Notes under the pieces: model-generated
The model's database searches: none
Told to the model about the DNA's origin: nothing
The model's input: the letters and a program-made list of their open reading frames with translations, nothing else
NCBI GenBank assembly: GCA_041659205.1
Contig: JBAZYS010000002.1
Location: forward strand, 1,627 to 65,626
Source of the DNA: Minisyncoccota bacterium
GTDB lineage: Bacteria; Patescibacteriota; Minisyncoccia; Phycocordibacterales; UBA9973
Direction of reading: 5' to 3'
DNA: 64,000 bases
Shown: positions 2,774 to 62,617 of the stretch, piece after piece
Layout: the number at the start of each line of letters is the position of its first letter
Position numbering within the stretch: position 1 is the stretch's first letter
Translations under genes and position numbers: made by a program

Positions 2774-4255
2774 TTAAAAAGAGTTTTTTATGTTTCTCCA
2801 AAAAAGTTTGTAAATAAAATAGGCGTAAATAATTAACGTGAGGAAAAGTGGAAAATCTGGGAAAGAAAAAGCTGCAAAGGGCAGACGTGAGAAAAAGCTA
2901 ATCACACTGAGCTCGTAATGTAAAAATAAATACGAAACATAACCAAAAGGTATAGCAAATACATAATAAATAAGTCCTGCAAAGCCGGTGATAAAACCAA
3001 GCATCATCGTAAATGGAATAAACGGAAGAATTAAAACATTTGCAGGTAAAGCTACAAGCGATAAATTCCCCATTTTATAAAGAATAAAAGGAAAGACGAA
3101 AACATAAGCAGCAGAGGTGACAGAAACAATATCTCGTAATTGGAAACGCTCAGGTACCCACATAAAATATTTCTCAATTCTTGGGGCGAGGAATATCACA
3201 GCAACTGTCGCGATAAAGGAAAGCTGAAAAGATACATCATACACAAGCAAAAAAGGGTTAAGAACAATCATAGATACACCAGCAAGGATAAGAGCCCGCG
3301 CAACATCATAATTTCTACCAGTCGCGCGGGCAATAAGCGCAAGCGTTGCCATTGTCCCCGCCCGAATAGCTGTAGAGCTTCCCCCAGTCATTAAAATAAA
3401 CAATATAATTGCTAAAATACCCATTCCAATACTAAAATTTAATGAAACGAAAGATATTCGAGCAAATAATTTCATAAACCATTCAGCAACAATCGTCACA
3501 TTATATCCAGACAAAGCAACGATATGTATCGTTCCAGTATTTACAAAACTTTGTCTCAGGGACTGATCGAAGGAAGACTTTTCCCCTAGGATAAGCCCAC
3601 CCATAAGCAAACTCTCGGGTCCCGTTATAGCCAAATTCATTTTCTCTAAAAACTTTTCTTTAGCAAAAAACAAAGCACCTTGAATTTTATTGCCATTCCC
3701 CCGAGAAACAATCTCAACTTTGGGATAACTCATCACGTATAAAATTCCATCTTTGCGAAGGTAATTTATATAATCAAACTCTTTACCAGTATCTGTAATA
3801 AAATTCTCTGGCTTTTTTAAAACACCTGTAAAATTTATCTCATCTCCATATTTGTAACTTTCATCCAAACTAGTTGATAACAAAATCTCAGTTTTTACGA
3901 AGGGCCGACCTTCGTAAGCTACTTCTACAGTTAATTGCTGATTGTTTTCTTTAATACTTGGCTCATCTACAATCTCTCCTCTTAAAGCAACTTTTTGCCC
4001 AACATGGGACTCAAAAACCGCTGGGCTCTCAACATCCACCATATTAAATCGAAAAATTCCTAAACAAAAAGTTAAAATAAAAATAGAAATTAATATTCCC
4101 CAATTATTTTTCGAAATGAGAGTAAAAAACAAGAGCAAGGCTAAGCAAATTATGAGAAGTAAAACAACAAAATATAAATTTACAAATAAAAAAGAGCGTA
4201 TTAACACTCCCAATAAAAACCCAAAACAAATTGTATAAAAAACTTTATCCCGCAT
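2774..4255 (-). CDS. comEC: ComEC/Rec2-like competence membrane protein; membrane channel part only
   Basis: 493 aa polytopic membrane protein with a competence-domain-like core and a long extracytoplasmic N-terminal segment. The MBL-domain half is a separate gene at 978-1862. Confidence 0.6.
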   Translation of the reverse strand: MRDKVFYTICFGFLLGVLIRSFLFVNLYFVVLLLIICLALLLFFTLISKNNWGILISIFILTFCLGIFRFNMVDVESPAVFESHVGQKVALRGEIVDEPSIKENNQQLTVEVAYEGRPFVKTEILLSTSLDESYKYGDEINFTGVLKKPENFITDTGKEFDYINYLRKDGILYVMSYPKVEIVSRGNGNKIQGALFFAKEKFLEKMNLAITGPESLLMGGLILGEKSSFDQSLRQSFVNTGTIHIVALSGYNVTIVAEWFMKLFARISFVSLNFSIGMGILAIILFILMTGGSSTAIRAGTMATLALIARATGRNYDVARALILAGVSMIVLNPFLLVYDVSFQLSFIATVAVIFLAPRIEKYFMWVPERFQLRDIVSVTSAAYVFVFPFILYKMGNLSLVALPANVLILPFIPFTMMLGFITGFAGLIYYVFAIPFGYVSYLFLHYELSVISFFSRLPFAAFSFPDFPLFLTLIIYAYFIYKLFWRNIKNSF

Positions 4256-28994: not shown

Positions 28995-30059
28995 ATGTCT
29001 AAAATAACCATAAAAAAATTGCTAAAAAGTGAAGTGGAAATAGAAGGAGAAATAGATTCTGCTATTTTCGAGTCTTATTTCAATAAAGCATTAAAAAAAC
29101 TTGGAGAAAATATCAACCTAGCTGGTTTCAGAAAAGGAAAAATTCCAGAAAGTGTTTTACTTTCTAATATTCCAGAAATTAGTATCTTAGAAGAAATGGC
29201 GGAACTCGCGCTCGGTGAACATTACCCTAAAATTGTCGAGGAGGAAAAAATAGATGCCATCGGCCGCCCAGAAATCTCTATTACTAAACTAGCCCGCAAT
29301 AATCCACTTGGATTTAAAATTAAAACAGCAATATTGCCTACAATTAAACTTCCCGACTACAAAGAAGACGCTAAAAAAATAATATCGAAGATTACAGATG
29401 CTGAGAAAAATACCGAAGTCTCTCCTGAAGATTTAGAAAATACAATAATGGATATCAGAAAATCTCGTGCTCCAAAAATACACATGGCAGAGGAACATGA
29501 GCATACAGAGGGGGAGGAACATGTCCACCCAGAGCCTGAACTCCCAGAATTCAATGATGAATTTGTCCGAGCGATAGGGCCCTTTAAAGATGTAGCGGAT
29601 TTTAAAGATAAATTAAAAGAAAATATCAAACTAGAAAAAGAAAACCAATTAAAAGAAAAAACTCGATTAAAGATAATCGAAAAAATAATAGATGATAGCG
29701 AAGTAGAACTACCAAATCTTTTAGTTGAAATTGAGTTAGATAAAATCTTATATAAAATGGAATCCGACATCACTCAGATGGGCCTAAAATTTGAAGATTA
29801 TTTAAAACATCTAAATAAAACTGTGGAGGACTTGAGAAAAGATTTCAAAACTGATGCGGAGAAAAAAGCTAAATTCGCTCTTATCTTAAATGAAATCGCA
29901 AAAGTAGAAAAAATAGTCGCCGACGAAGAACAAGTAGCGATGGAAGTCGCAGCCATCCTGGAACACTATAAAGATGCAGACCCTGAGAGAGCTCGCATGC
30001 ATGCAGAAAATGTCCTTACAAATGAAAAAATCTTTCAGTTTTTGGAGAATCAAAAATAA
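28995..30059 (+). CDS. tig: Trigger factor (short form)
   Basis: N-terminal ribosome-binding signature GFRKGKIP; clpP lies downstream, the usual tig-clpP arrangement. Only 354 aa, so the PPIase domain seems reduced. Confidence 0.65.
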   Translation: MSKITIKKLLKSEVEIEGEIDSAIFESYFNKALKKLGENINLAGFRKGKIPESVLLSNIPEISILEEMAELALGEHYPKIVEEEKIDAIGRPEISITKLARNNPLGFKIKTAILPTIKLPDYKEDAKKIISKITDAEKNTEVSPEDLENTIMDIRKSRAPKIHMAEEHEHTEGEEHVHPEPELPEFNDEFVRAIGPFKDVADFKDKLKENIKLEKENQLKEKTRLKIIEKIIDDSEVELPNLLVEIELDKILYKMESDITQMGLKFEDYLKHLNKTVEDLRKDFKTDAEKKAKFALILNEIAKVEKIVADEEQVAMEVAAILEHYKDADPERARMHAENVLTNEKIFQFLENQK

Positions 30060-30073
30060 AAATATAGTTATTA

Positions 30074-30109
30074 AAAAAGCCCCGAAAGAAAATTCTTTCG
30101 GGGCTTTTT
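30074..30109. terminator. Bidirectional rho-independent terminator between the convergent tig gene and the 1208 aa gene
   Basis: AAAAAGCCCCGAAAGAAAATTCTTTCGGGGCTTTTT. Confidence 0.75.
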
Positions 30110-30124
30110 CTTAATTTAATAATT

Positions 30125-33100
30125 TTATTTACAATACTGATCCCAAGTAGGCTGAAAATTTACTCCACAATATTTAGAAGGATAATTTGTCTGACATTGA
30201 GTAGCTTCATAATATTTACAGTCGTAAGTAAGGGATTCACAACCCGTCAGACTTCCATGCGCTTGCTTCATCGTACCAGCTGCAATAAATCCATCAATAA
30301 CCTTTTCAAATGCAGTTCTTCCGCCAATCGAAGGAATGTTTTTATCACAGTAATTGACAAGACCCCCTTTGCCAGGAGAAACTAATCCTTTATATAGACC
30401 ATCCATGGTCTTAATAGTATTATCCCAGTCATATCCAGTCATCTTATAAAAGACTTCTCTGTACCCAAGACTATACCCACCGACAGGTGTATTGAGAAGT
30501 GTTTGTTCATGACCGGCTGGAGCATCATAGGTACTTGCATTCGTAGCCATTACACCCAGATTAGTATTTTGGTATGGATTAAGTCTTTTAATTTCTTTTG
30601 CTCCCAGGTAAGCCAAGGTACAAACATTTATACGACTAAACTCAGCCATTAGATGCTCATATCCATAACCGACTTGATACGCAGGATCCGCTTTAGCTTT
30701 TCCATTGATTGGGTACTGCACTAAATCTGCTGCATATTCAGCTTGCATTTGTGAACCTGGTTCCGTACAGCCATATTGATTATATCGGTCTAATTGTTTT
30801 TTTATCAAAGCATCCCACTGTTTCTGAGAAACGGAAAGTTTCCACTCATTTGCATCAATAGATGCTCGAGAAGGAATTGGAAGAGGATTTGCTTCTGCTA
30901 ATCGACGATAGAGACTAGCAGCTAGAACTTGAGTCGTTGCAGTTTCTCCTGCAAGAAGAGTCCCTCTTGGTAAGATATCCCCTGCTGGAAGAGATCCAAA
31001 TGCTCCAGCACTACCAGAAGCAAGTTCATCATAGACACGAGTGCATGAAGAGAATTCATATTCAAGAGGGAAATTTCCTTGTGCATCATTACAGAAACGT
31101 TTTGCTAAACGATCGAAACGTTGTCCGATAGTTTCTCCTGCAACGGATGCCCAGCGCATTGCATCGTCCCCAAGTGAAACTGGTGTCGAATAAGAAGCCC
31201 AAATAGGCGAACCACCAAAACCAGTGACAGTACACATAATCGGCAACAAACCATTTGTGACCACTCCGGCCTCTACTCTTCTTGTAGGTTGAACACCTGA
31301 TGATGTTTTTGGAAGTGGATTTGAAATATCTTTTTGTTTAGCTTGAGCAGAAACTTGAGAGATGGCTGTATATATTTCGGAATAAGGAACGTTATCACCA
31401 CATGAATAAACTTTAGCTGGTGGCACAGTTCCAGCATTGACCGTCACACTTCCACCTCCTGTTCTACCCAATCCTCCTGTGCAAACAAGTGTATAAGTAT
31501 GTGCGCCCTCAGCAAGTGCAGGAGTAGTATAAGTCCCAGCACCCTCAGTCGCACCTGACCAGTCTCCAGACTTTACACAACCAGAAGTCACATTGCTTGA
31601 TGTATAGGTAATGACCGATGTTCCTCCAACAGCAACTGTTACAGGTGAAGCAGAAATTGTAACTACCGGTGCGAGAGGTGTTTGAAAATCAACAACGTTC
31701 CCTGGTGGTGTGTTTGTGTTTGTATTTGATGTATTGCTATTCGTGTTTGAAGATGTATTGCTTGAAGTATTTGAACTGATAGATCCAGCCGCTTCAGCGT
31801 TCATTTCTGCTTTAGTAAATTTACCCACAAGCCCATCAACTTTTAGCCCATGTTTTTGTTGCCATGTTTTTATAACAACAGTAGTTTTTGGCCCTAGCTT
31901 ACCATCCAATACCAAACCAAGTCCTTCTCTGTCATTAAGAAATTTTTGCAATGCCACAACATATTGACCCTTGCTTCCTCTTCGGAGAGTTGCAGGACCA
32001 AAATCATAACTGGTAGGCTTGGGACCTGAAGTATTTTGTAAATTTTGTGCTGGAGGATTAACTGGTGGTGGAGTAGCAGGTGGTGGAGTTACTGGAGCGA
32101 TAGGAGGTACGGGAGTGGCACTTACAATACATGGCTTCCCTGAAATTGGATGAAATTTATCTCCAGGTAGACAACCTGCGAGCAAAGAGGTTCCACTTGT
32201 AGCACATGGCTTCCCCGTTATTGGATGAAACTTATCTCCAGGGGCACAACTTGTTGCAGTCGGAGTACCGGATCCCGTTGGGGTTACCACAATAGGATCA
32301 ATAATAAAGAAAGTTATAGCATTCGCAGCAATTACTGCATCCGAAGAACCAAAATTTAAACTAAGAACATATGAAGATGCACTTTTCGGAATAGTTGTTT
32401 CAACATAACAACTCTCAACATCTGAAAAAATACAATCCGCTGTTTTAACCATTGAATATACCTTACCTACTTTCCAAGAAAAGCTTCCTGAATTTGGAAC
32501 AGTAGTATAGCCTGGTGAAAGATAATATGTTTTATCTACTCCATTAACTTTACCAGCAACTGTTATGTTGCCAAACGTACTACCTGGAAATTTTGTTTTA
32601 TTCCAAGTAATATTTTGAGTTTTTCCAATTTGCCAAGAATTATTACTTGCTAAAGTATAAGCACTAGCACCTGCTCCCGTACCTGTCCCAGTGCCTCCGC
32701 TTGTTCCACCACTAGTTCCAGTCCCTGTTCCTGAACCGCTGCCAGTACCGCTCCCTATTCCTCCAACTGTAAAGGTAAATGGGGTACTAGAAAGAATAGT
32801 GCATGTTCCAGAACCTATACCACGGCACGCATCTTGATCAGACAAATTTTTAAGTGTAAGAGTATGCGTACCAGATGCAAGCGAAACATTAATCCCAGGG
32901 AAATTGTCTGCTTGATAAGTAGCAGGAAGAGAGAAACTAAAAGACGTTGATGATATTAAGGTAGGATTTAAGGTCTTAGTTTTTCCATAAACTCCCTCAT
33001 CTAGAACAACTGAAGTAACAAGAATAGAAGGGTCTAATATAATAAAGTTTGTACCAGTTACTGCAACAGCCGCACCAGCAACTGGTGTTACTGGAGAAAT

Positions 33101-36754: not shown

Positions 36755-36769
36755 CTCGAGATAAAAATA

Positions 36770-36805
36770 AAAACACCCCAAACGAAAGTAAGGGGTGTTT
36801 TTATT
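36770..36805 (+). terminator. Rho-independent terminator of hup
   Basis: AAACACCCC-AAACGAAAGTAA-GGGGTGTTTTT. Confidence 0.7.
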
Positions 36806-36830
36806 TTTATCTAGATTTTTTGGAATATAT

Positions 36831-36912
36831 CTTTTGAAGGGGGTTTCGAGGCTGACGAGCCGAGAACTTCAGAATTTTTTAAGCTTCAAAAAATTCGTGC
36901 CCGAAAAAAGTT
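36831..36912 (+). repeat. Structured intergenic element, copy 4
   Basis: CTTTTGAAGGGGGTTTCGAG-[GCTGACGAGCC]-GAGAACTTCAG-[AATTTTTTAAGCTTCAAAAAATT]-CGTGCCCGAAAAAAGTT. Confidence 0.7.
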
Positions 36913-60461: not shown

Positions 60462-60701
60462 AGTTTAACAATCATACTAAGATAAAATCTCCTTATTTAT
60501 ATAGTTATTTTTTAATATCTATTTGACATTTCAAATTTAGCATGCTATATTTTGTACCTACAAATATAGTTCTTTAAAATTTATTTTTGACCATTTCGGC
60601 AAAGGGTGCAGGACGTTTTATAAAAAATATCATCGTGCATCATTTGCCGAAATGGCATCTCGCTACGTGAAGTAGTATGAGATTTTTCCCAGGAGGGAAA
60701 C

Positions 60702-61340
60702 ATGAAAGTTACAATCAAACGCGGAATAGGACAGCCGGGCAAGCTCTGGACAGGGTCCAGGGACTTTTTCCCTGGGGCAGACCTGTTCATCCCCGGCTTG
60801 GAACACACTTCTCTCGGCAAAGCAGAGGGCTTCGGCGACAGAGTTGTCGAAGTCAATATCATCGAAAACTGGTCAGTGTCAGGGGCCACCACGCGTCGTC
60901 TCTGGGTTGTAAACAGAGAAGTCACGTTCACGCCTGAAGAAGCTGCTTTGGCTCCCGTCCTTTACATTGGGACCGGCGGGGTCGGCTCATTGCCTGACCC
61001 GAGCGCAGGACTACGGGAAGAGGATTTGGCTCTCCTGAAGGTAGCTTTATGGAACTGGTCGGGGAGGATCGGCGGCTTTGCCATTCTCAATCCCATCACC
61101 GTTCTCTCAGGATATTACAGCCAAAGTGATCTACGTGATCTACCCAAGGTCACGGAGGAATTCAAGTGGGTTCAGACATATGCTGGGAACGTTGTTTCAG
61201 AATATGTCTTGCTGGAGTTCCGGGGAGGAAACCTCCATCCTAGACACATACCGCCATTCACCATCTGGCCGAAAGCAACCTTGTCACCTCCTGAAAAGAA
61301 AAGATTGGAGGAGACTTTTCGACGAGGAATTCGGAAATAA
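60702..61340 (+). CDS. Hypothetical protein (212 aa) of the GC-rich insertion; no recognisable motif
   Basis: ORF with GC-rich codon usage and SD AGGAGGG 6 nt upstream. The overlapping alternative-frame ORFs are artefacts of the GC content. Confidence 0.5.
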   Translation: MKVTIKRGIGQPGKLWTGSRDFFPGADLFIPGLEHTSLGKAEGFGDRVVEVNIIENWSVSGATTRRLWVVNREVTFTPEEAALAPVLYIGTGGVGSLPDPSAGLREEDLALLKVALWNWSGRIGGFAILNPITVLSGYYSQSDLRDLPKVTEEFKWVQTYAGNVVSEYVLLEFRGGNLHPRHIPPFTIWPKATLSPPEKKRLEETFRRGIRK

Positions 61341-61375
61341 TTAGTGATATCGTTCGGGGGTCGCAATGTGGCCCC

Positions 61376-61428
61376 CAGCTGTTTCGAGATGTGTATCTCG
61401 ACTGATGAGTCCTAAAGGACGAAACAGA
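61376..61428 (+). ncRNA. Type III hammerhead ribozyme
   Basis: cugu-U|UCGAGA-ugugua-UCUCGA-CUGAUGA-GUCC-uaaa-GGAC-GAAA-caga. All 11 invariant core nucleotides are present; helix I is 6 bp, helix II 4 bp with a UAAA loop, helix III 4 bp and open, with the A15.1-U16.1 pair. Predicted cleavage after U61383 (GUU triplet). Confidence 0.6.
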
Positions 61429-61445
61429 AAATTCCAATTAGAAAA

Positions 61446-61484
61446 ACAGCCCCGTCACTCACGAGTGACGGGGCTGTTTTATTT
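61446..61484 (+). terminator. Strong rho-independent terminator after the hammerhead
   Basis: CAGCCCCGTCACTC-ACGA-GTGACGGGGCTG followed by TTTTATTTT. Confidence 0.8.
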
Positions 61485-61498
61485 TATATAAATTTATT

Positions 61499-62617
61499 TT
61501 AATTTGCCCAAGACCAGTCTGTGCCTGGATTTTTAGCATTGAAAACTTCAAAGTGGATGTGGGGTCCAGTTGAATGCCCCGTAGAGCCCACGAGGCCGAT
61601 AACTTCTCCCTGAGTGACCTCTGCACCAGTGTGGGTAATTACTTTACTCATGTGAGCGTAGAGAGTTTTAGTACCATTTGGGTGTTGAACGATTACCATA
61701 TTCCCATATCCTCCACTCCAGCCTGTTTTTGCAATAAGTACTACTCCTGAAGCAGAAGCATAAATCGGTGTACCTATCGGTGCTCCAATATCTATTCCAC
61801 GGTGTCCTGGACCATGGAGACCTTGAGTTTTCCTAATTCTAGGACCGGTAGGCAAAGGGTCTATAAAGTACCCGGAAACGCTTTGGATTGGATGTGTAGC
61901 ATAATAATTTTTATCTTTCGCAACAGCTGAACCGAGGTTTGCGGCAGGCTTGTCGCCTCCTTCATCAATCATTTCGCCCCCAGGAATCATAATCTTATCT
62001 CCAATAGCAAGCTTGGTATCTTCATCAAAACCGTTAAACTGAATGATATCTGATGCATCTACTTTATAAAGAGCGGCAATCCCTTTCAATGTCTGTCCTT
62101 TTTTGACTGTATGCTCTGTTCCAGATATAGGCAAAATAAATAGCACATCACCCTCTACGAGTTTTGTGCCTTTCTTTAAATCATTCGCTGACAAAACAGT
62201 ACTGACTGAAACTTCAAATAACTTAGCAATTGAAGCAACAGTATCACCTTTTCTGACTACATAGACACTTGTGTCTTCTGGAGAAACATCTGGAATATCC
62301 TTTCCATCAGATACACCCAGCGGACCAGTTGCAGGGACAAGGGAATTGTTGGAAACAATATTGGAATTGGAATTTGTATCAGTATTGCTCTTTCTATCTT
62401 CAACTATTGAAGCGGAAGAAACATTAGCCTGCAAAAGGGCTATATTTTGAGAGTTGCTACCTATTTTAGGAAGACTTACTGTATTTGGACTTGTTTCGGC
62501 ATAAGCCTGGTCCCCGACAAAGAGAGAAGAGAAGGAAGAGAAGAAATCTGCCTGCACTTTTCGGGTAGGCACAAGAAGAGTCCCAAACAACAACGTAAAG
62601 GCTAGAAAAGATCTCAA
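61499..62617 (-). CDS. Secreted LysM-LysM-M23 peptidoglycan endopeptidase
   Basis: Signal peptide, two LysM repeats (YVVRKGDTVASIAKLF, HTVKKGQTLKGIAALY) and M23 motifs (HRGIDIGAP ... GSTGHSTGPHIHFEV). Confidence 0.8.
   Translation of the reverse strand: MRSFLAFTLLFGTLLVPTRKVQADFFSSFSSLFVGDQAYAETSPNTVSLPKIGSNSQNIALLQANVSSASIVEDRKSNTDTNSNSNIVSNNSLVPATGPLGVSDGKDIPDVSPEDTSVYVVRKGDTVASIAKLFEVSVSTVLSANDLKKGTKLVEGDVLFILPISGTEHTVKKGQTLKGIAALYKVDASDIIQFNGFDEDTKLAIGDKIMIPGGEMIDEGGDKPAANLGSAVAKDKNYYATHPIQSVSGYFIDPLPTGPRIRKTQGLHGPGHRGIDIGAPIGTPIYASASGVVLIAKTGWSGGYGNMVIVQHPNGTKTLYAHMSKVITHTGAEVTQGEVIGLVGSTGHSTGPHIHFEVFNAKNPGTDWSWAN

Follow-up and report, generated by a model that had tools for sequence, protein, structure and literature searches.

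A predicted type III hammerhead ribozyme at the 3′ end of an acquired gene cassette in a Paceibacterota genome

Introduction

Hammerhead ribozymes of types I, II and III have been known in bacteria and phages since 2010–2011, as has their position beside orphan ORFs in foreign DNA. These genomic hammerheads (de la Pena & Garcia-Robles 2010; Perreault et al. 2011, PMC3088659; Jimenez et al. 2011) have a canonical core and are intergenic. In bacteria they flank small, non-conserved ORFs and have been proposed to process mRNAs (PMC3088659, PMC6155905, PMC6765202), cutting them into units of differing stability, and their role is still called elusive (PMC6765202, PMC6155905). The sTRSV(+) hammerhead, which processes the rolling-circle multimers of a plant satellite RNA, has a crystal structure showing loop-loop docking (PMC6155905), and its derivative RiboJ, positioned 5′ of genes with an extra hairpin downstream, is used as an insulator that makes transcript ends context-independent. 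The mammalian Clec2 3′-UTR contains a eukaryotic hammerhead, split by a long insertion, that removes the polyadenylation signal to lower expression (PMC6765202). A literature search linking hammerheads with Patescibacteria, CPR or TM7 found nothing relevant, within incomplete coverage.

Here we describe a predicted type III hammerhead in a 64,000-nt stretch of contig JBAZYS010000002.1 (hereafter the window). In common with the bacterial and phage examples, it has a canonical core, is intergenic, flanks a small ORF annotated without function and is linked to foreign or mobile DNA. It differs from them in being a single copy and not one of a cluster, in occupying the gap between a stop codon and a terminator instead of lying between cistrons, and in its host, a member of the Paceibacterota (CPR), with no integrase or phage genes found near the ribozyme. 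The topology, the CUGU/ACAG helix III, the 6-bp helix I with a UGUG-containing loop, the GUCC/GGAC helix II and a tetraloop ending in A are all shared with sTRSV(+) and RiboJ, whereas the helix I sequence, loop 2 (UAAA versus GUGA) and the cleavage nucleotide (U versus C) are not. Unlike sTRSV, the window ribozyme does not process rolling-circle multimers, and in contrast to RiboJ it is placed 3′ of its gene with the extra hairpin upstream, though in the view proposed here it would likewise act as an insulator of transcript ends. The Clec2 and window cleavage sites both lie between a stop codon and the signal that forms the 3′ end (PMC6765202), so that cleavage would remove that signal in either case; the window ribozyme is instead compact and bacterial, with a hairpin directly before it that would be protective in the proposed view.

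Results

Architecture of the predicted ribozyme

The ribozyme and the elements surrounding it are listed in Table 1. On the (+) strand, 61376-61430 reads CAG-CUGU-U-UCGAGA-UGUGUA-UCUCGA-CUGAUGA-GUCC-UAAA-GGAC-GAAA-CAG-AAA. A sequence-only reading of this DNA had described a type III hammerhead here, and its core, helices, loops and coordinates agree with the sequence base for base, with every listed element present. The invariant core (C3 U4 G5 A6 N7 G8 A9, G12 A13 A14, the A15.1-U16.1 pair and H at position 17) is complete in the window copy, U61382 pairing with A61424 to make the 16.1-15.1 pair. Loop 1 is the family consensus, loop 2 keeps the three conserved A's, and both loops are similar to those of sTRSV. 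In a 158-nt context, a fold constrained to the active secondary structure comes within 2.7 kcal/mol of the minimum free energy. The predicted cleavage triplet, GUU, is cut more slowly than GUC in minimal hammerheads and is a minority triplet within the family, U occupying the cleavage position in 14 of 84 listed relatives. The spacing described by the sequence-only reading also holds, with the ORF stop codon 36 nt before 61376 and a strong terminator 15-18 nt downstream of the ribozyme.

Table 1. Coordinates of the hammerhead ribozyme and of the flanking elements in the window
Feature	Position	Strand	Description
Direct repeat D1, left copy	60490-60516		Duplicated ~25-nt AT-rich stretch; alignment A6
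Putative promoter, sigma-70-like	60523-60551	+	Consensus scan only; TTGACA, 17-nt spacer, TATATT, upstream TG; 11/12 matches
GTTCTTTAAAA motif	60569-60579	+	Start of cassette leader, just after promoter
Long hairpin in ORF212 5′ leader	60591-60655	+	Inverted repeat I1, 23-nt arms, 87% complementary; fold prediction
ORF212	60702-61340	+	212 codons, stop 61338-61340
GC-rich hairpin	61356-61376	+	~9 bp, -17.2 kcal/mol; ends 2 nt before helix III
Type III hammerhead ribozyme	61379-61427	+	All core nucleotides and three helices present
Helix III	61379-61382/61424-61427	+	CUGU with ACAG, 4 bp, open
Cleavage nucleotide (predicted)	U61383, position 17	+	Triplet GUU; cut between U61383 and U61384
Helix I	61384-61389/61396-61401	+	UCGAGA with UCUCGA, 6(+1) bp
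Loop 1	61390-61395	+	UGUGUA, 6 nt
Core	61402-61408	+	CUGAUGA
Helix II	61409-61412/61417-61420	+	GUCC with GGAC, 4 bp
Loop 2	61413-61416	+	UAAA
GAAA	61421-61424	+	Core, 3′ part
Bidirectional intrinsic terminator	61443-61480		17-18 bp stem, A-run before, T-run after
Direct repeat, right copy	61477-61503		Duplicated ~25-nt stretch; abuts M23 peptidase stop codon

Statistical and covariance-model support

On the two strands of the window together, a descriptor search found a single type III motif. When the window was shuffled 1000 times with its dinucleotides preserved, no shuffle contained an equally good motif (helix I ≥6, helix II ≥4 and helix III ≥4 bp), and a loose version of the motif appeared in 43 of 1000. 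The Rfam model RF00008 (Hammerhead_3) aligned with the window copy over its full length, model positions 1-54, with every core column matched (local E = 4.6e-7; when all 4227 Rfam families were run over the whole window, E = 1.5e-4, with no other ribozyme match). The search with RF00008 suggested by the sequence-only reading thus matched the motif, but the score of 37.8 bits falls short of the gathering score of 48.5, an outcome which that reading had named as counting against a ribozyme, and an Rfam scan at the gathering threshold reports no hammerhead in the window.

The RF00008 model expects a 7-bp helix III, compared with 4 bp in the window copy. When the same cut-off was applied to 18 loci, 17 of them with Patescibacteria names (L042, L043, L009, L109 and others), it was passed by only 5 of ~45 clear type III relatives, and those that passed have a 7-bp helix III. 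Since RF00008 catches only copies of this kind, the low score of the window copy reflects the model and not the sequence, and because the threshold also rejects most unambiguous family members, a sub-threshold score is uninformative here. A covariance model constructed from 80 related hammerheads with the window left out (model R1) gave the window copy 70.8 bits (E 5e-19). This score, together with helices that covary across 84 listed relatives, bears out the assignment to type III.

A second candidate on the (+) strand at 22774-22842 (18 bits, E 0.008; CUGAUGAGUCC...GGACGACAC) was rejected, its core being broken with GACA in place of GAAA. The minus strand carries a 419-codon ORF at this place, and the candidate is probably a chance match or a decayed copy. 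Further sub-threshold Rfam matches (E 0.06-0.09), His_leader-like or ohsC-like, at 30012-30197 on both strands and at 36758-36833 on the minus strand are probably palindromic terminator-like sequences.

A family of type III hammerheads, mostly from Patescibacteria

Relatives were collected from one genome per species with the pattern CTGATGAGTCC-N3-8-GGACGAAAC, which fixes only the core and helix II, and at least 120 genome loci match it. Among 120 listed records, 83 are named as Patescibacteria lineages (Saccharibacteria, Paceibacterota, Parcubacteria, Kaiser-, Taylor- and Nomurabacteria and others), 11 are an unnamed "bacterium" and 26 belong to other taxa, counts that are not an unbiased census because they cover only the matches listed and because the pattern fixes helix II. 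Applied to viral contigs, this pattern retrieves type II ribozymes for the most part, type III accounting for 36 of 129 matches.

Of 132 listed pattern matches, 108 show the type III arrangement, in which helix I has ≥5 bp and is closed by a hairpin while helix III is open and has ≥3 bp, versus 7 of 1195 random anchors. Among the listed copies the shared 53-nt build comprises CUGUC, a 6-bp helix I, the UGUGUA loop, CUGAUGA, GUCC-AAAA-GGAC and GAAACAG, and the loops UGUGUA and NAAA are conserved across the matches listed. In a gap-free alignment of 84 listed matches, pairing in helix I reaches 99% and six of the seven pairs are doubly changed in 30-55 sequences each, and 5 of 6 pairs of helix III are changed on both sides; sliding the 3′ partners by 1-3 columns lowers the pairing to 30-47%. 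These helix statistics are partly circular, the 84 sequences having been pre-selected by a descriptor that requires the helices, and the anchor comparison is for that reason the fairer, non-circular control. The window copy shares 96% identity with L042, a copy from Saccharibacteria, and belongs to the minority type with a 4-bp helix III (41 of 127 listed copies). By these sequence comparisons, the window element is a member of an abundant type III family found mainly in Patescibacteria genomes.

Among the matches listed, about 90% of the family members lie between two same-strand ORFs. The flanking ORFs are mostly small and mostly lack a Pfam or PHROG match, and no gene family recurs beside the hammerheads listed, the ORF clusters having at most 4 members. 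Over the 500 nt upstream of the ribozyme the GC content exceeds the locus mean by 4-5 points, compared with 1-2 points downstream; the ribozyme is thus associated with the 3′ end of a gene comparatively rich in GC, and the window conforms to this.

Two sets of records deserve separate mention. Near-identical hammerheads with near-identical flanks are found in a MAG labelled Polynucleobacter (L028) and in a Saccharimonadales record (L072); L028 is probably a mis-binned Saccharimonadales contig, and several other matches labelled non-CPR may reflect similar mis-binning. A Blastocatellia MAG (L046, 329-1944) has four near-identical hammerheads, not of type III, within 1.6 kb, three of them ~22-25 nt before an ATG and the first ~33 nt before one, in what looks like a polycistronic "punctuation" array.

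Sequences flanking the ribozyme

The GC-rich hairpin that precedes helix III did not figure in the sequence-only reading and would become the new 3′ end if cleavage occurs. A structured element at this position is a property of the family, the 36 nt before helix III in the listed copies having a mean folding energy of -9.8 kcal/mol versus -5.8 kcal/mol for controls 200 nt away (Wilcoxon p 2e-8). In 60 of 67 listed cases, 0-2 nt separate the end of the hairpin from helix III, a range that includes the window gap.

On the downstream side, the motif GNNCWUU, mostly GTTCTTT, occurs no more than 20 nt after helix III in 53 of 127 listed members versus 3-7 in control windows, and it is often followed by the ribosome-binding site and start codon of a same-strand gene. 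The motif is conserved in sequence, yet no covarying partner was found for it, and a pairing of GUUCUUU with loop 2 and helix II (AAAGGAC) was rejected, as sequence variants do not compensate. The window copy has no GNNCWUU downstream and has AGAAAAUUCCAAUUAG instead, followed by the terminator. A terminator likewise takes the place of the motif, 6-18 nt after the ribozyme, in L014, L049/L095, L050 and L076, and also in L133. In the window the motif is found as GTTCTTTAAAA in the cassette leader; the same motif follows the hammerhead in ~40% of the family members among the matches listed, and it is also present in leaders of ORF212 homologues that have no ribozyme. Motifs of the GTTCTTTAAAA type were seen in the leaders of L003, L125 and L127 and at 2765-2775 of L132. 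The window terminator is common to the ORF212 cassette and to the convergent M23/LysM peptidase gene.

ORF212 and its association with hammerheads

The sequence-only reading had called the upstream gene a GC-rich orphan. The GC contrast is confirmed (52-56% in ORF212 versus ~35-38% around it), and the ORF proves to belong to a small conserved family, with 49 representatives at 50% identity and 27 invariant columns among five remote members, all members being GC-richer than their surroundings. ORF212 has no Pfam or PHROG match, and its structure prediction is mediocre, neither fold nor sequence giving a match. No homologues were found in viral contigs or among the ORFs adjoining 140 family hammerheads.

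Besides the window, 13 loci of ORF212 homologues were examined, 3 contigs and 10 metagenome loci. The three contigs have no ribozyme, whereas model R1 identified hammerheads in 2 of the 10 metagenome loci, L133 and L132. In L133, an ORF with 35% identity to ORF212 precedes a hairpin, a type III hammerhead and, 13 nt further on, a terminator; this ribozyme is diverged and has an extended helix II, and the layout equals that of the window. The L132 hammerhead lies ~120 nt upstream of the ORF212 homologue, and a 118-nt direct repeat (2702-2819 and 3642-3772; 89-96% identical) surrounds the ribozyme, leader and ORF. This repeat consists of three hairpins and GTTCTTTT-AGGAGG with a 940-nt period, the hammerhead following the first copy only. 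Two hairpins and a terminator close the remaining homologues, and no other ribozyme classes were found near ORF212 homologues. The sequence-only reading had suggested looking for homologues of the ORF beside hammerheads: a hammerhead lies 3′ of the ORF in L133 and 5′ of it in L132, making three loci with the window, but the other 11 of 13 loci have none. Because L133 and L132 carry one and most homologues do not, the association is recurrent and not obligatory.

The inserted cassette and its site

The window is chromosomal DNA of a Candidatus Paceibacterota MAG, the ORF212 product matching an NCBI entry of this MAG with full identity. The neighbouring genes are of the ordinary housekeeping kind and encode a TMEM175-like channel, a CCA-adding enzyme, four tRNAs, a YraN/UPF0102 protein, a ZIP transporter and a convergent LysM/M23 peptidase. 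We compared this region with the loci of the closest M23-peptidase homologues (L254-L257; 78-80% identity), which have the same gene order as the window. In L254-L257 the ZIP and M23 genes are convergent and 53 nt apart, with a small terminator between them and neither ORF212 nor an R1 match, whereas in the window the two genes are separated by ~970 bp. The insert contains, in order, the promoter, a leader with GTTCTTTAAAA and the long hairpin, ORF212, the GC-rich hairpin, the ribozyme and the terminator. Both junctions of this block match, in alignment A6, a single stretch beside the M23 stop codon in L254-L257, and the resulting ~25-nt duplication looks like a target-site duplication. The claim of the sequence-only reading that this segment is foreign is therefore sustained on more direct grounds than composition, a ~970-bp block absent from the four closest syntenic loci being bracketed by a ~25-nt duplication. 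Judged from these alignments, the cassette is a recent, horizontally acquired insertion in a Paceibacterota lineage. No recombinase was found inside the ~970-bp block, and the cassette DNA gave no match to phage records.

The ORF212 leader is ~150 nt long and may act as a cis-regulatory RNA. Leaders that are long and structured are seen in homologues too, with partial conservation among L003, L125, L127 and L129. The GC-rich terminator stem of the window is non-homologous to the terminator of the relatives, and the old upstream terminator is decayed. At 60462-60500 the terminator of the ZIP gene itself has apparently been lost, leaving AAAATCTCC as a remnant of the hairpin of the relatives; ZIP transcription may therefore enter the cassette and be ended or cut there.

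Discussion

We consider it probable, with some reserve, that the window carries a genuine type III hammerhead that arrived in a ~970-bp cassette and serves as a cis-acting 3′-end processing module. We infer its transcription, its cleavage in vivo, the contact between its loops and its effect on mRNA stability. The cassette transcript is predicted to fold into a three-helix junction in which loop 1 (UGUGUA) and loop 2 (UAAA) probably make a docking contact in the manner of sTRSV. The 2′-OH of U61383 would then attack the adjacent phosphate and generate 2′,3′-cyclic phosphate and 5′-OH ends. The 5′ product would be the ORF212 mRNA, ending in the 9-bp GC hairpin and a 7-nt tail (AGCUGUU>p), and the 3′ product would be a fragment of ~100-107 nt with a 5′-OH end that comprises the ribozyme body and the terminator. 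The cassette mRNA would in this way gain a defined, hairpin-protected end regardless of the sequence downstream. The short 4-bp helix III would release the products quickly, so that the hairpin and hammerhead together could form a portable 3′-end-forming module; that such a module belongs to small self-contained cassettes moving between Patescibacteria genomes is a tentative proposal, which we put forward as possible and hold to be somewhat doubtful. Several considerations weigh against this explanation: the Rfam score lies below the gathering threshold, GUU is a minority triplet in the family, the very strong terminator 15 nt downstream would already give a protected end, most ORF212 homologues do without a hammerhead, and the upstream hairpin could aid folding of the ribozyme and not protection of the mRNA.

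An alternative is that the hammerhead, intact and perhaps active, is a passenger or relic with no selected role in a monocistronic, terminator-backed setting, the usual setting of hammerheads being between the genes of a polycistronic array. The roughly nine-tenths of listed family members that lie between same-strand ORFs and not before a terminator, the strong terminator already in place, the lack of a hammerhead beside most ORF212 homologues and the recent insertion of the cassette are all in keeping with a passenger. A relic would not, however, be expected to retain the core, the helices and both conserved loops intact and to score so highly with the family model, and the order of ORF, hairpin, hammerhead and terminator is found again in L133 with a diverged ribozyme and, at the 6-18 nt spacing, in the four other terminator-type cases noted above. 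We judge a passenger unlikely, though it is the strongest of the competing explanations. By analogy with the Clec2 3′-UTR hammerhead and with engineered 3′-UTR twister ribozymes (PMC6765202), cleavage might instead lower expression, cutting off the terminator hairpin and shortening the life of the mRNA, which would hold down a possibly harmful foreign gene. The 17-bp terminator stem is indeed stronger than the 9-bp upstream hairpin, but the GC-rich hairpin that abuts helix III is conserved in the family and would protect the new 3′ end, and down-regulation of this kind seems to us improbable.

Still less probable, to the point of being a slender possibility, is a role for the ~100-nt 3′ fragment as a stable small RNA, for example one that pairs with the 3′ end of the convergent M23 mRNA. 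The fragment is highly structured (-45.8 kcal/mol) and overlaps the bidirectional terminator that it has in common with the M23 gene, whereas neither spacer nor terminator shows conservation when the window, L133 and the remaining terminator-type members are compared, and the terminator stem is unlike that of the relatives. As for a chance resemblance, or contamination with RiboJ or sTRSV vector sequence in place of a native ribozyme, the sub-threshold Rfam score and the likeness to the sTRSV-derived RiboJ insulator might suggest it, and RiboJ vector sequence is present in one public assembly: the 532-bp contig L031 (RAYF01000220.1, "Bacterium D16-36"), with synthetic RiboJ, a hairpin and then a cloning site, is vector contamination. 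Against chance stand the 1000 shuffles without an equally good motif and the 70.8 bits from an independent family model; against contamination, a helix I, two loops and a cleavage nucleotide unlike those of RiboJ, native flanks on a 163-kb MAG contig and dozens of natural near-relatives. This explanation is effectively refuted.

The locus is unusually easy to interpret, having a single ribozyme, gene, promoter and terminator, and close relatives allow a precise comparison with the empty site. Two aspects may be new: the view of the family as a whole in CPR genomes, and a clean example of insertion. The RF00008 gathering score misses ~40 of ~45 clear relatives, and routine annotation will therefore overlook most of this family, which, among the matches listed, is mostly from CPR bacteria. 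The regularities of the family, namely a hairpin at helix III, a GC-enriched upstream gene, a downstream GNNCWUU and a variant with a terminator at 6-18 nt, point to a role in defining where the transcripts of acquired genes end at the 3′ side, and not to control of the gene that follows. Were the hairpin and hammerhead a portable 3′-end module of mobile cassettes, the window would provide a clean example of a filled site against an empty site with a target duplication of ~25 nt, thousands of type III hammerheads in the reduced genomes of Patescibacteria would mark cassette boundaries, and these organisms, which have few RNA-processing enzymes, would possess an RNase-independent form of mRNA punctuation.
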